Position numbers and translations under genes: made by a program. Under the pieces are notes generated by a model. It was not told where the DNA came from. It ran no database searches and worked only from the letters and a program-made list of their open reading frames with translations. This document shows positions 5,689 to 47,920 of a stretch of 64,000 nucleotides of DNA, in pieces (the first letter of the stretch is position 1; the number at the start of each line of letters is the position of its first letter). Origin of the DNA: Escherichia phage vB_EcoM_FB; sequence record MT682711.1; one strand, given 5' to 3'.

Positions 5689-5718
5689 ATAATATCTTAA
5701 TCATGAGCCCATGTAAAC
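5689..5718 (-). promoter_or_regulatory. T4-type early promoter inside a 10-bp inverted repeat
   Basis: minus strand GTTTAC-18bp-TATTAT; inverted repeat ATGGGCTCAT/ATGAGCCCAT. Confidence 0.5.
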
Positions 5719-8337: not shown

Positions 8338-8367
8338 ATAGTATCATCACTAAAGCCCGTTGTAAAC
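8338..8367 (-). promoter_or_regulatory. T4-type early promoter with conserved leader
   Basis: minus strand GTTTAC-18bp-TACTAT then AGCCCTATCAAAACA; partial inverted repeat GGGCT/AGCCC. Confidence 0.5.
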
Positions 8368-8667: not shown

Positions 8668-8696
8668 ATAGTATCATATTTATAGACCTTGTAAAC
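8668..8696 (-). promoter_or_regulatory. T4-type early promoter inside an inverted repeat
   Basis: minus strand GTTTAC-17bp-TACTAT; inverted repeat GGTCTATA/TATAGACC; leader GACCTATCAAAACA. Confidence 0.55.
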
Positions 8697-41943: not shown

Positions 41944-43503
41944 ATGAAAAAGAATGCATTAGTTCAAAAATGGTCCGCTCTGCTGGAAAACGAAGCTCTT
42001 CCTGAAATCGTTGGTGCTTCTAAACAAGCTATCATCGCTAAAATTTTCGAAAACCAGGAACAAGACATCCTGACTGCCCCGGAATACCGTGATGAAAAAA
42101 TCTCTGAAGCATTTGGTTCTTTCCTGACCGAAGCTGAAATTGGTGGTGACCACGGTTATGATGCTACCAATATCGCAGCTGGCCAGACTTCTGGTGCTGT
42201 AACTCAGATTGGGCCGGCAGTAATGGGTATGGTTCGTCGTGCTATTCCTCATCTGATTGCTTTTGATATTTGTGGTGTTCAGCCTCTGAATAACCCTACC
42301 GGCCAGGTATTTGCCCTGCGCGCAGTTTATGGTAAAGACCCTGTCGCTGCTGGCGCTAAAGAAGCTTTCCACCCGATGTATTCTCCGGACTCTATGTTCT
42401 CTGGTCAGGGTGCTGCTGAATCTTTCGAAGCACTGGCTGCAAGCAAAGTTCTGGAAGTTGGTAAAATTTATTCTCACTTCTTCGAAGCTACCGGTGCTGC
42501 ACACTTCCAGGCTGTTGAAGCCGTAACCGTTGATGCTGCTGCTACCGATGCCGCTAAACTGGATGCTGCTGTTACCGCTTTGATTGAAGCTGGTAAGTTG
42601 GCTGAATTGGCTGAAGGTATGGCTACTTCTATCGCTGAACTTCAGGAAGGCTTTAACGGTTCTACCGATAACCCGTGGAACGAAATGGGCTTCCGCATCG
42701 ACAAACAAGTTATCGAAGCTAAATCCCGTCAGCTGAAAGCAAGCTACTCTATCGAACTGGCACAGGACCTTCGTGCAGTACACGGTATGGATGCAGATGC
42801 TGAACTGTCCGGTATCCTTGCTACCGAAATTATGCTCGAAATCAACCGTGAAGTTATCGATTGGATTAACTACTCTGCACAGGTTGGTAAATCTGGTATG
42901 ACCAACACCGTTGGCGCTAAAGCTGGTGTGTTTGACTTCCAGGACCCGATTGATATCCGTGGTGCTCGTTGGGCCGGTGAGAGCTTTAAAGCCCTTCTGT
43001 TCCAGATTGATAAAGAAGCAGCCGAAATCGCTCGTCAGACCGGTCGTGGTGCTGGTAACTTCATCATCGCTTCCCGTAACGTAGTTAACGTACTGGCTGC
43101 AGTTGATACTTCTGTAAGTTATGCAGCTCAAGGTCTGGGTCAAGGTTTCAACGTTGACACAACCAAAGCAGTATTTGCCGGTGTTCTTGGTGGTAAATAT
43201 CGCGTTTACATCGACCAGTATGCACGTTCCGATTACTTCACCATCGGTTATAAAGGCGCTAACGAAATGGACGCAGGTATCTACTATGCTCCGTACGTTG
43301 CACTGACCCCGCTGCGTGGTTCCGATCCGAAGAACTTCCAACCGGTAATGGGCTTCAAAACTCGTTACGGTATCGGTATCAACCCGTTCGCTGACCCTGC
43401 TGCTCAGGCTCCTACCAAACGTATCCAGAATGGTATGCCTGACATCGTTAACAGCCTTGGTCTGAATGGTTACTTCCGTCGCGTATATGTTAAAGGTATC
43501 TAA
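41944..43503 (+). CDS. 23: major capsid protein gp23
   Basis: 519 aa; near-identical long blocks to T4 gp23 as recalled (e.g. EIGGDHGY.ATNIAAGQTSGAVTQIGPAVMGMVRRAIP, C-terminal RRVYVKGI). Confidence 0.97.
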   Translation: MKKNALVQKWSALLENEALPEIVGASKQAIIAKIFENQEQDILTAPEYRDEKISEAFGSFLTEAEIGGDHGYDATNIAAGQTSGAVTQIGPAVMGMVRRAIPHLIAFDICGVQPLNNPTGQVFALRAVYGKDPVAAGAKEAFHPMYSPDSMFSGQGAAESFEALAASKVLEVGKIYSHFFEATGAAHFQAVEAVTVDAAATDAAKLDAAVTALIEAGKLAELAEGMATSIAELQEGFNGSTDNPWNEMGFRIDKQVIEAKSRQLKASYSIELAQDLRAVHGMDADAELSGILATEIMLEINREVIDWINYSAQVGKSGMTNTVGAKAGVFDFQDPIDIRGARWAGESFKALLFQIDKEAAEIARQTGRGAGNFIIASRNVVNVLAAVDTSVSYAAQGLGQGFNVDTTKAVFAGVLGGKYRVYIDQYARSDYFTIGYKGANEMDAGIYYAPYVALTPLRGSDPKNFQPVMGFKTRYGIGINPFADPAAQAPTKRIQNGMPDIVNSLGLNGYFRRVYVKGI

Positions 43504-43519
43504 GATATAACCTTATTAT

Positions 43520-43549
43520 GGGAGACTTCGGTCTCCCATTCTTGTTTCT
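43520..43549 (+). terminator. rho-independent terminator after gene 23
   Basis: GGGAGAC-TTCG-GTCTCCC followed by a T-rich tail. Confidence 0.6.
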
Positions 43550-43552
43550 GTA

Positions 43553-43819
43553 TTATGCAATCTTAACTCGGCGGTTGATGATATCACGGAAGTCAATACG
43601 ATTTTCTTGGATTTTCAGCCAGTTACCAGATTTGTCTTTGGTATGGGTAGAGTATTCACCGTTCCACCAGAAGTCGGTAGCATAAGCCATGGCTTCGTAT
43701 TTCTTAACTAAGGCATTCACTGCATTACCATTAGGATTGTTACCGAATTTTTCTACCAGAGCTTTGATGTCTTTATCAAGAGCGGAAAGAGTAGTACGAA
43801 TAAAGTTTAACTTGTTCAT
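43553..43819 (-). CDS. small hypothetical protein (88 aa) antisense to the late block
   Basis: ORF-track frame trimmed to ATG after GAGGAG in the conserved early leader; occupies the position segD holds in T4. Confidence 0.55.
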   Translation of the reverse strand: MNKLNFIRTTLSALDKDIKALVEKFGNNPNGNAVNALVKKYEAMAYATDFWWNGEYSTHTKDKSGNWLKIQENRIDFRDIINRRVKIA

Positions 43820-43848
43820 TTTTAATCTCCTCATGTTTTGATAGGTCT

Positions 43849-43878
43849 ATAGTAACATGTGAGAATCTTGCTGTAAAC
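43849..43878 (-). promoter_or_regulatory. T4-type early promoter with conserved leader
   Basis: minus strand GTTTAC-18bp-TACTAT then AGACCTATCAAAACA. Confidence 0.5.
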
Positions 43879-43884
43879 AACTTT

Positions 43885-43892
43885 TATAAATA
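43885..43892 (+). promoter_or_regulatory. late promoter TATAAATA upstream of gene 24
   Basis: exact consensus 28 nt before the ATG. Confidence 0.6.
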
Positions 43893-43920
43893 AACATATA
43901 CCCTCAATAAGGAAAGCGCA

Positions 43921-45204
43921 ATGGCAAAGATTAACGAATTACTGCGCGAGTCAACAACTACTTCCAGCAACTCATTGGGTCGCCCTAATCTTGTTGCTTT
44001 GACCCGTGCTACAACCAAATTGATTTACCGTGATATTATCGCCGAACAACGTACTAGCCAGCCTATTGCTGCACTGTATGGTGTCAAATATCTTACCCCT
44101 GATAATGAATTTAGTTTCCAGACAGGTGCCTCTTATGGTGGTGAAGTTGGTTCTAAAGACCGTGAAACTATCCCAGAACTCACAGATAAGGCCCAGGCGA
44201 TTGCTCAGGGTGAATATTTCAAGTACCAGAATGTGGTTTATAAGGCTCTTAAAGCAAGCCCACTCGCGTCCACTAGCGCCACAGAATTGGCTGATGCTCT
44301 TCAAGAAGGTTTAGTGTCATTAACATGTCGTCTGGTTCCTGATGCTGCCCATACCACTAAATTTGAAGCGAGTGATGTAGAAATCTCTGATGCTGTATTC
44401 CAGGTTAATAAATGGAATGCTCCGGTTAAGACCCGTAAATTGAAGACGGCTTTGACTGTAGAATTAGCGCAGGATATGGAATCAAATGGCTTTGACGCGC
44501 CGGCGTTCTTAGAAGACCTCTTGGCTACAGTAATGGCAGATGAAATTAATAAAGACGTTCTGCAATCTCTAATAACCGTATCCAAACGTTATAAAGTTAC
44601 TGGTGTATCTGATAACGGCATCATCGATTTGTCTTATGACAGTGCTCCTGAATCTGCACGTAAACTTTATGAACTCGTTTGTGAGATGAATTCTGAAATC
44701 CAGAAAACTACTTCTTATTCTGGCACGTTTGTTGTGGCTTCAAGTCGTGTGGCTGCAATGCTTGCAGGTTCTGGCTGGTTAAAACATAAACCCGAAGATA
44801 ATAATTGGCTTCCGGAAACTGCATACGGATATTTGTTGAATGGTCTGCCTCTGTTTTGTGACGTTAACAGTCCATTAGATTATGTTACCGTTGGTGTTAA
44901 AGAGAATTACGGCGGTAATGAAGTTGTCGGTTCTATTTTCTACGCTCCCTATACCGAAGGCTTAGATTTAGATGACCAAGAACACGTCGGTGCTTATAAG
45001 GTTATTGTTGACCCGGATTCATTACAACCTTCTATTTCTCTGATGGTTCGTTATGCACTATCAGCTAACCCGTACACCGTGGCTAAAGACGATAAAGAAG
45101 CTCGTGTTATCGATGCAACCAATATGGATTTAATGGCTGGACAGAGCAATATGTCTTATCTGGTTGGCGTTAAACTTCCGGCAATTATTTACGAGGCTGA
45201 TTAA
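43921..45204 (+). CDS. 24: capsid vertex protein gp24
   Basis: 427 aa, same length as T4 gp24; N-terminus MAKINELLRESTTT and ELAQD/INKDVLQSLITVSKRYKVTG blocks. Confidence 0.9.
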   Translation: MAKINELLRESTTTSSNSLGRPNLVALTRATTKLIYRDIIAEQRTSQPIAALYGVKYLTPDNEFSFQTGASYGGEVGSKDRETIPELTDKAQAIAQGEYFKYQNVVYKALKASPLASTSATELADALQEGLVSLTCRLVPDAAHTTKFEASDVEISDAVFQVNKWNAPVKTRKLKTALTVELAQDMESNGFDAPAFLEDLLATVMADEINKDVLQSLITVSKRYKVTGVSDNGIIDLSYDSAPESARKLYELVCEMNSEIQKTTSYSGTFVVASSRVAAMLAGSGWLKHKPEDNNWLPETAYGYLLNGLPLFCDVNSPLDYVTVGVKENYGGNEVVGSIFYAPYTEGLDLDDQEHVGAYKVIVDPDSLQPSISLMVRYALSANPYTVAKDDKEARVIDATNMDLMAGQSNMSYLVGVKLPAIIYEAD

Positions 45205-46484
45205 TGTCTAAGATTGTAGACCTAATTAAAGAATCCACATTGACGGCTGCCAGCTCGGTTGGCCGTCCTGCTCTTCTTTCATACACCCAAGCAACTAATA
45301 AACGAATCTTTAAAGCCCTAGTTGCTGAACAAAAAACAAATCAACCGGTTGCTGCTCTGTATGGGGTACGTGTACTGAATCCTGACGACAAAATGACTTA
45401 TCTTGGTGGAGCAACATTTGCGGGCCAGATTGGTATGACGGAACGTGAAAATATTCCAGAATTTACTGATTCATCTACAGCTTATGCGGTCGGTGATATG
45501 TTCCAGTTTGAAAGCGTAGTGTTTAAAGTTCTAGAAGCATCTCCTTTCGCCGGAACCACAGAAACCAACCTCAGCGAAGTTATTTCTGAAGCAGTGGCAG
45601 CCGGCCATATCCGTATGGTGTCGGATGCTGCTATTACTTCTAAATTTGAACAAGGCCATCCTGAAATTGCTGAAACCGGATTCCGTATCGACAAATGGCA
45701 ATCTGAAGTTAAATCACGTAAACTGAAAACTTCATTGACAGTCGAATTAGCCCAAGACCTAGAATCTAACGGGTTTAATGCTCCTAATTTCGTTGAAAAT
45801 CTGCTAGGCATTCAAATGGCAGAAGAAATTAATAAGGATGTATTACAGTCATTAATTACCGTGAGCTCTCGTTTTAAAGTCCAGGGTGTTTCTGAAAAGG
45901 GTGTATTAGACCTTACCAACCCTCGCTACGATAATGCCCAGGACCGTGCTCGCACATTATATTATTATATGTGTGAGATGAACTCTGCCGTCCAACGACA
46001 GACTTCTTTTGCCGGGACTTATGCAGTAGCTAGTTCTCGTTGTGCTGCTATTCTCGCCGCCTCTGGTTGGGTTGAGAAAAAGGAAGACCAGGACGAATTG
46101 GCTTATGGTATATTAAAGAATGGCCTACCACTTTATGCTGATATGAATAGTCTATGTGATTATGTTATTGTTGGTGTAAATGCCCAGATGGGTGAAGGAC
46201 AGACGGTCGCATCTTTATATTATGCGCCTTATACGGAAGGTTTGAATGTGGTTGACGAAGAAGGTGATACTTCAGTTGGTGAATTTAAGGTTATTGTTGA
46301 CCCGGAAAGCTTACAACCTACAGTAGCATTGCTTGCTCGTTATGCATTGACTGCAAACCCTTATACCGTCGCTAAGGACGATAAAGAAGCCCGCATTATT
46401 GATGGTTCTGATATGGACAAAATGGCTAATCAAAGTCAATTGAGTTCTTATCTCGGCGTAAAATTACCGCCTTTAGAAAAATAA
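45204..46484 (+). CDS. second gp24-like capsid vertex protein (diverged paralog)
   Basis: 426 aa collinear with the gene at 43921-45204 over its whole length, roughly half identical by eye. Confidence 0.8.
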   Translation: MSKIVDLIKESTLTAASSVGRPALLSYTQATNKRIFKALVAEQKTNQPVAALYGVRVLNPDDKMTYLGGATFAGQIGMTERENIPEFTDSSTAYAVGDMFQFESVVFKVLEASPFAGTTETNLSEVISEAVAAGHIRMVSDAAITSKFEQGHPEIAETGFRIDKWQSEVKSRKLKTSLTVELAQDLESNGFNAPNFVENLLGIQMAEEINKDVLQSLITVSSRFKVQGVSEKGVLDLTNPRYDNAQDRARTLYYYMCEMNSAVQRQTSFAGTYAVASSRCAAILAASGWVEKKEDQDELAYGILKNGLPLYADMNSLCDYVIVGVNAQMGEGQTVASLYYAPYTEGLNVVDEEGDTSVGEFKVIVDPESLQPTVALLARYALTANPYTVAKDDKEARIIDGSDMDKMANQSQLSSYLGVKLPPLEK

Positions 46485-47842: not shown

Positions 47843-47920
47843 AACAATTCTCTCGTTGAGTTGGTAAACCCATCTTAACATAGAATTTTTAACTTGTAAA
47901 CAGGAATTTTGTACTTTAAT

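Follow-up and report, generated by a model that had tools for sequence, protein, structure and literature searches.

Introduction

Lambdoid morons are autonomous promoter-gene-terminator units that have been inserted between two genes of a late operon. In T4-type phages, cassettes that combine a promoter-early stem-loop (PeSL) with an ORFan have been described (Arbiol et al., 2010, PMC2839356; Comeau et al., 2014, PMC4122927). T4 also carries segD, a gene for a free-standing GIY-YIG homing endonuclease for which, according to a 2010 review (Edgell et al., PMC2988022), a specific promoter was not found and transcript levels were assumed to be vanishingly low. A 2022 omics study classifies T4 segD as 'early-RNA_middle-Protein' and quantified the SegD protein (PMC9697503, supplement files 4-6).

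We analysed the interval between genes 23 and 24 in a stretch of 64,000 nucleotides from Escherichia phage vB_EcoM_FB (record MT682711.1; below, the window). The 601 bases around this locus are 100% identical to Escherichia phages Bp7, QL01 and LQ5 and to Salmonella phage ABTNLS3, and 96.5% identical to JS98, which places the window in the genus Dhakavirus (JS98-like) of the Tevenvirinae; in comparisons across phages, Bp7, being identical at the locus, stands for the window sequence. The small gene found here has been annotated before, as hypothetical, in dozens of genomes; plasticity of this kind is well known in T4-like phages. What is new is modest: a map of cassette replacement between genera, and a promoter that links the cassette to T4 segD.

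Results

Genomic context

The locus lies within the 20-24 head-gene block, between the end of gene 23 (major capsid protein, 43503) and the start of gene 24 (43921, plus strand). An open reading frame of 88 codons (MNKLNF...RRVKIA) occupies positions 43553-43819 of the minus strand. A preliminary description had reported this ORF, its position between the gene-23 terminator and the gene-24 late promoter, and its orientation opposite to the late genes, and all of this holds. The intrinsic terminator of gene 23 is a GC-rich hairpin, ATGGGAGAC-TTCG-GTCTCCCAT (43518-43539, plus strand), with a 9-bp stem followed by TCTTGTTTCT; the late promoter of gene 24, recognised by its motif TATAAATA, lies at 43885-43892 (plus strand). 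Comparison of empty with occupied slots in relatives delimits a module of about 330 bp (approximately 43550-43881), which consists of the ORF, its leader and an early promoter and sits between the T-tract of the terminator and the late promoter.

The hairpin at 43518-43539 is the only one in the interval 43300-44100, and it is also present in phages with an empty slot. It forms in minus-strand RNA as well, where it is followed by AUAAUAAGG and has no U-tract. The 3' end of an early antisense transcript is therefore uncertain, and transcription may read through into antisense gene 23.

Downstream of the late promoter, the head vertex gene 24 is a tandem duplicate on the plus strand, with 24a at 43921-45204 (427 aa) and 24b at 45204-46484 (426 aa), the start codon of 24b overlapping the stop codon of 24a. 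Both copies are annotated in JS98, IME08 and VR26, while T4, RB14, G28 and PhAPEC2 have a single gene 24.

Early promoter and its repeats

Upstream of the ORF, a promoter scan and an alignment of copies identified a T4-type early -35 element, GTTTACA, with AAAAGTT before it (43872-43878, minus strand), and a TG-extended -10 element, TGtTACTAT (43849-43857, minus strand), in which the hexamer TACTAT is preceded by TG and follows TTTACA after a spacer of 17 nt. Transcription is predicted to start near 43842 (minus strand). The site thus combines the features of T4-type early promoters, namely GTTTAC(A), a spacer of 17-18 nt, a TAnnnT -10 element that is often TG-extended, and A/T-rich upstream sequence, represented here by AAAAGTT and TTTATTTATA. 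Neither a MotA box nor a minus-strand TATAAATA was seen by eye upstream of the ORF, and a middle or late promoter for this gene was rejected on these grounds. We infer that the promoter would be active early, with the host RNA polymerase.

The 21-mer TACTATAGACCTATCAAAACA (43834-43854, minus strand), which covers the -10 hexamer, the discriminator and the transcript start, was found by repeat search at positions 713, 6005, 8323 (with one mismatch), 8653 and 43834 of the window, in all five cases on the minus strand, and had no match in 100 shuffles. The copies also have AAAAGTTGTTTACA in common, and a ribosome site and an ATG follow every one of them; the earlier claim that one copy of a repeated early-promoter cassette precedes the ORF is therefore correct. 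Taken alone, a generic sigma-70 scan is not significant and resembles that of shuffled sequence (2 sites found, 1.6 expected), as it would if a chance ORF had met a chance promoter match in an intergenic spacer; the 21-mer repeat, with zero expected matches, speaks against such a coincidence. All other early-type promoters in the window point leftward, so that an antisense orientation to the late genes is normal for an early unit.

The -35 motif GTTTAC is invariant in Bp7, JS98, G28, VR26 and PhAPEC2, five phages of four genera. So is TTTATAAATAA, which is present in phages with an empty slot too. Read in reverse complement, the late-promoter motif TATAAATA supplies the A/T-rich sequence that directly precedes the early -35 element, and the two promoters thus stand back to back and diverge, an arrangement kept in four genera and in T4.

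Several other early-type promoters of the window, at 8696-8637, 8367-8308, 5718-5659, 5261-5202 and 756-697 (all minus strand), carry an inverted repeat that extends across the -10 hexamer, its left arm lying in the spacer and its right arm just downstream of the -10 element (AGGTCTATA/TATAGACCT in the promoter at 8696). The promoter at 5718 has a stem of 13 bp (-20 kcal/mol). Between the promoters at 8367 and 8696 both arms have changed and their pairing is kept (GGGC...GCCC for GGTC...GACC). These stem-loops lie inside the promoter, whereas those of PeSLs lie beside it. The promoter at 43878 lacks the left arm carried by several other copies; with the inverted repeat missing, it does not count as an exact copy of a single cassette.

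Start codon and coding evidence

An in-frame ATG at 43834-43832 (minus strand), 15 nt before the start at 43819, extends the mechanical ORF to 93 aa, which is why some records give this length: the GenBank records of IME08 and VR26 list 93 aa, and the annotation of JS98 the 88-aa version. This upstream ATG belongs to the predicted 5' leader and is separated from the presumed transcription start by about 9 nt; it overlaps the ribosome site of the downstream start and has none of its own. The ATG at 43819, by comparison, follows the Shine-Dalgarno sequence GAGGAG (43827-43832, minus strand) at a distance of 7 nt. As GAGGAG precedes only this second ATG, 88 aa is the better call. In the alignment GAGGAG is kept in IME08, KAW3E185 and PhAPEC2, and T4 has GGAG before segD.

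The ORF is a real protein gene under purifying selection. Among five close alleles, dN/dS ranges from 0.03 to 0.13 (10 pairwise comparisons); Bp7 and KAW3E185, for instance, differ by 21.5 synonymous and 7.5 non-synonymous changes, and the low ratio (about 0.1) is found in alleles with and without a neighbouring segD alike. Even where alleles are only 27-40% identical, the length stays at 87-93 aa and an NGN-x2-N motif is invariant. Divergent alleles are present in Dhaka-, Gapriver- and Mosigvirus. The gene is a long-standing resident under purifying selection and was not recently inserted in this phage.

These data also bear on a possible role of the transcript in place of the protein. Early leftward transcription would occlude the gene-24 late promoter, and read-through of the weak reverse terminator may yield RNA that is antisense to the gene-23 3' end, which would damp premature capsid expression. 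Such a role could explain why the early -35 and upstream region stays back to back with the late TATAAATA in all genera examined, and it agrees with the missing U-tract behind the hairpin in the antisense direction. Selection at the codon level, the kept ribosome site and the constant length of 87-93 aa at 27-40% identity show, however, that it is the protein that is selected, and many relatives with an empty slot express genes 23 and 24 without the unit. We consider a function of the transcript very unlikely.

Protein family and predicted structure

A homology search of the 88-aa protein, as had been proposed, confirmed that the ORF is conserved. It is a member of phrog_6003, with all of its residues (1-88) aligned to positions 1-88 of the 90 in the profile (E=6.8e-50), and tblastn found homologs in 237 phage records. 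All annotated homologs are labelled hypothetical (JS98 orf173, RB69ORF188c, VR7 gp190), and syntenic homologs are annotated as similar to RB69ORF188c and VR7 gp190. For many homologs the tblastn alignment stops at query residue 72; this is a search artefact, as direct translation gives proteins that are collinear to residue 86-88.

A homolog of 40% identity is encoded by the rV5-like Acinetobacter phage ABPH49 (MH533020; 2501-2767 of the retrieved stretch), a member of the Vequintavirinae, where it lies amid unrelated small ORFs between two GC-rich hairpins with GAAA loops, GGGCCGAAAGGTCC upstream and GGCCCCGAAAGGGGCC downstream. As this is a different phage family, the gene family is found in more than one phage family. 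A profile search against 1.84 billion representatives returned only four other full-length family members, and a profile of divergent members retrieved about 22 clusters, all on phage-sized contigs and none usefully named. Long profile matches in multiple stretches, for example to the repetitive P0015, were set aside since they look like low-complexity noise, and P0010 looks chimeric.

Pfam searches of the ORF family gave only sub-threshold DUFs (DUF5380, E=0.11, in one member), and NCBIfam, PADLOC and PDB sequence profile searches with the 88-aa protein gave nothing usable. Known defence and anti-defence families were represented by no PADLOC, Pfam or NCBIfam profile match and by no match to a characterised fold. 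Neither Pfam nor the structure model revealed a GIY-YIG or other nuclease domain, and the protein is therefore not a Seg protein. A first model (pLDDT 74.8) had no Foldseek match in the PDB and retrieved only its own homolog from a viral library. With a deeper alignment, AlphaFold2 gave a confident model (pLDDT 89.3, pTM 0.74) with two long helices (residues 3-25 and 31-48), a beta-hairpin (52-71) and a C-terminal helix (77-87). The protein is thus predicted to be a small cytoplasmic three-helix bundle with a beta-hairpin and would have no relative of known function.

Together, the promoter repeat, the phrog_6003 match, the presence of the ORF in 237 records, the dN/dS of about 0.1 and the confident structure model refute a coincidence of ORF and promoter, to which we attach a negligible probability.

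The 23-24 interval in related phages

Six states of the slot were found among the relatives compared. It is empty in RB14 (Tequatrovirus), KPN6 (Jiaodavirus), EcS1 (Kagamiyamavirus) and SJ_PmiM (Bragavirus), in which the gap between genes 23 and 24 is 80-100 bp long, passes straight from the hairpin and T-tract to TATAAATA, and contains neither the ORF nor GTTTAC or the early promoter. The small ORF stands alone in Bp7 and JS98 (Dhakavirus), VR26 (Gaprivervirus), PhAPEC2 (Mosigvirus) and G28 (Tequatrovirus), and is joined by a segD-like GIY-YIG gene on the same strand in IME08 (Dhakavirus) and KAW3E185 (Mosigvirus). T4 has segD alone, in antisense orientation. The Enterobacter phage EC-F1 (Pseudotevenvirus) carries a homing endonuclease on the sense strand (2187-2822 of the retrieved stretch), and GEC-3S (Krischvirus) has three tiny sense ORFs of 32-50 aa between two annotated terminators (2339-2752 of the retrieved stretch). 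Probes specific for the junctions detected the ORF-segD junction in 38 records and the ORF-terminator junction in 47. The slot states and junction counts bear out the preliminary description, which had called this interval a recurrent landing site for accessory genes and had named T4 segD, here found on the same strand as the ORF, as one of its occupants.

Exchange between genera

In G28, a Tequatrovirus, genes 23 and 24 are 98-100% identical to those of RB14 throughout, and from about 40 nt before the gene-23 stop up to the late promoter the sequence switches to 92-100% identity with Bp7. The G28 and Bp7 genes 23 and 24 are 80% and 68% identical, in comparison with 94% for the ORF. A second mosaic is found in KAW3E185, a Mosigvirus whose flanks are about 100% identical to PhAPEC2 and whose gap contains the ORF and segD of the IME08 type; in PhAPEC2 itself the allele shows only 33% protein identity. 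G28 and KAW3E185 thus represent two independent cases in which only the gap was replaced, the crossovers lying in conserved ends of the flanking genes. These cases show that the whole gap is swapped among genera through recombination in the 3' end of gene 23 and in the region of the late promoter and the start of gene 24.

Relationship of the cassette to segD

In IME08 the ATG of the segD-like gene lies 4 nt past the stop codon of the ORF and upstream of the same hairpin, so that no space is left for a separate promoter; the encoded enzyme is 56% identical to T4 SegD. The segD-like genes of relatives join the ORF at its last 13 nt including the stop codon (43553-43565, minus strand), which is a candidate region for the homing site. 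Alleles without segD match the junction probe only up to the end of the ORF, and fixed differences between the two groups are confined to ORF nt 255 and 258-261, at the junction, in a small sample of three segD-less and two segD-bearing alleles. Tblastn rows that end at residue 72 had suggested that insertion of segD replaces the last 16 codons of the ORF; this was ruled out by reading IME08 and KAW3E185 directly, as both encode the full 88 aa and differ from the segD-less form in the last codons (IA vs AA). The junctions show the ORF unit as the docking place of a segD-type homing endonuclease gene, which inserts right at the ORF stop.

A link to the cassette was also found in T4, from which the small ORF is absent. 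The 90 bp before T4 segD (107233-107322 of NC_000866) align with the cassette promoter: T4 has ATTTACA where the cassette has GTTTACA and TGaTATTAT where it has TGtTACTAT, the offset from TATAAATA is equal, and a GGAG ribosome site is present. The region upstream of T4 segD thus contains a plausible sigma-70 promoter, TTTACA-N17-TATTAT with TG. Use of this slightly degraded, and presumably slightly weaker, copy of the cassette early promoter offers an explanation for the expression of T4 segD. The early RNA reported for T4 segD is, in turn, the sole experimental hint that the promoter class found in the window could fire early.

The close association with segD raises the question of whether the small ORF could be a hitch-hiker of the endonuclease, which is of no benefit to the phage and is co-converted in homing, and whether genomes with the ORF alone, such as Bp7 and G28, could be leftovers after loss of the endonuclease. 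In favour of this reading, KAW3E185 gained the ORF and segD together in place of a divergent resident allele, and it reaches its highest identity to IME08 (100%) around the ORF-segD junction, from which the similarity falls off in either direction. The number of records with this junction (38) and the segD ATG only 4 nt beyond the ORF stop point in the same direction. Strong purifying selection on the ORF (dN/dS about 0.1) is found, however, with or without segD. Divergent alleles (33% and 63% identity) persist without endonuclease in Mosigvirus and Gaprivervirus, the G28 junction bears no remnant of segD, and the homolog in the unrelated rV5-like phage has no endonuclease nearby. A mere passenger of segD is thus an unlikely explanation for the small gene.

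A further possibility is that the cassette and the segD-type endonuclease belong together as a single composite mobile unit. In that case an IME08-type SegD would have its homing site in the 3' end of the ORF and the adjoining terminator junction (about 43545-43570), and the early promoter of the small gene would drive expression of the endonuclease. The long-puzzling 'promoter-less, antisense' segD of T4 would derive from such a unit by loss of the small ORF and fusion of segD to the cassette leader. The small protein would act early, in host interaction or counter-defence, a role not recognised before, and the slot would stay occupied because of the benefit that this protein confers. We regard this combination as rather unlikely.

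Discussion

The module between genes 23 and 24 is probably an accessory early-gene cassette that is complete in itself and occupies the gap between two genes of a late capsid operon. Just after infection, the host sigma-70 RNA polymerase would use GTTTACA-17 nt-TGtTACTAT, with the A/T-rich late-promoter region immediately upstream, and would produce a leftward monocistronic mRNA of about 300 nt that comprises a 22-nt leader, GAGGAG and the 88-codon ORF. This transcript would meet the gene-23 terminator hairpin from the back, the only hairpin available as a transcript end. Late in infection, the gap would serve genes 23 and 24 solely as terminator and late promoter. The unit is exchanged via homologous recombination in the flanking conserved sequence, sometimes along with a homing endonuclease. 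As most small early ORFs of T-even phages are of such a type, the protein could be a dispensable host-interaction factor that acts in host takeover or counter-defence, which is the weakest part of our explanation.

Nothing in this arrangement is unexpected for T4-like phages. It provides a clean worked example of T-even phages whose capsid genes are nearly fixed and in which a small accessory unit is swapped in an 80-bp gap; in two independent transfers between genera the recombination boundaries could be placed to a precision of a few tens of bases. The expression of T4 segD receives an explanation in the homolog of the cassette early promoter that lies in front of it. Since natural phages tolerate insertions of 0.3-1 kb here, engineered cargo could plausibly be placed in the slot under early control, and the 88-aa protein, a small and well-folded ORFan under selection, is a candidate for host-interaction screens.

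The cassette resembles PeSL units in that a strong early promoter of sigma-70 type with A/T-rich upstream sequence and a stem-loop frame a small gene of unknown function, in that the promoter sequence is repeated around the genome, and in that the unit is gained, lost and replaced among close relatives. Unlike in PeSLs, its stem-loop does not adjoin the promoter; it is the gene-23 terminator at the 3' end, about 340 nt away, and a late promoter and gene 24 lie upstream of the ORF promoter, where there is no stem-loop. A single promoter copy is present at the locus, the nearest others being at 47901 (of different sequence) and 8653 and none lying 3' of the ORF, which makes excision through two flanking repeats impossible; the boundaries of exchange fall in the conserved ends of genes 23 and 24 and not in repeated motifs. 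The cassette is moreover located in a core block of late capsid genes, and not in a hyperplastic region of non-essential genes. Membership of the PeSL class was thus rejected on three defining features: the adjacent stem-loop, the flanking motif pair and the hyperplastic location.

The likeness to lambdoid morons lies in an extra, laterally transferred unit between structural genes that abut in relatives without it. Here, a gene with its own promoter and a hairpin terminator stands between genes that abut in RB14, KPN6, EcS1 and SJ_PmiM. In contrast to morons, the cassette has its terminator in common with the neighbouring gene, and it is predicted to be expressed early in the lytic infection of a virulent phage and not from a repressed prophage.

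The comparison with T4 segD, the free-standing homing endonuclease gene (PMC2988022), separates the two proteins, as the 88-aa protein has no GIY-YIG domain, and brings the two loci together. Both genes use the same slot in antisense orientation with the same terminator hairpin, both are preceded by a homologous promoter and ribosome site at an equal offset from the gene-24 late promoter, and 38 phages have them side by side in a single unit.
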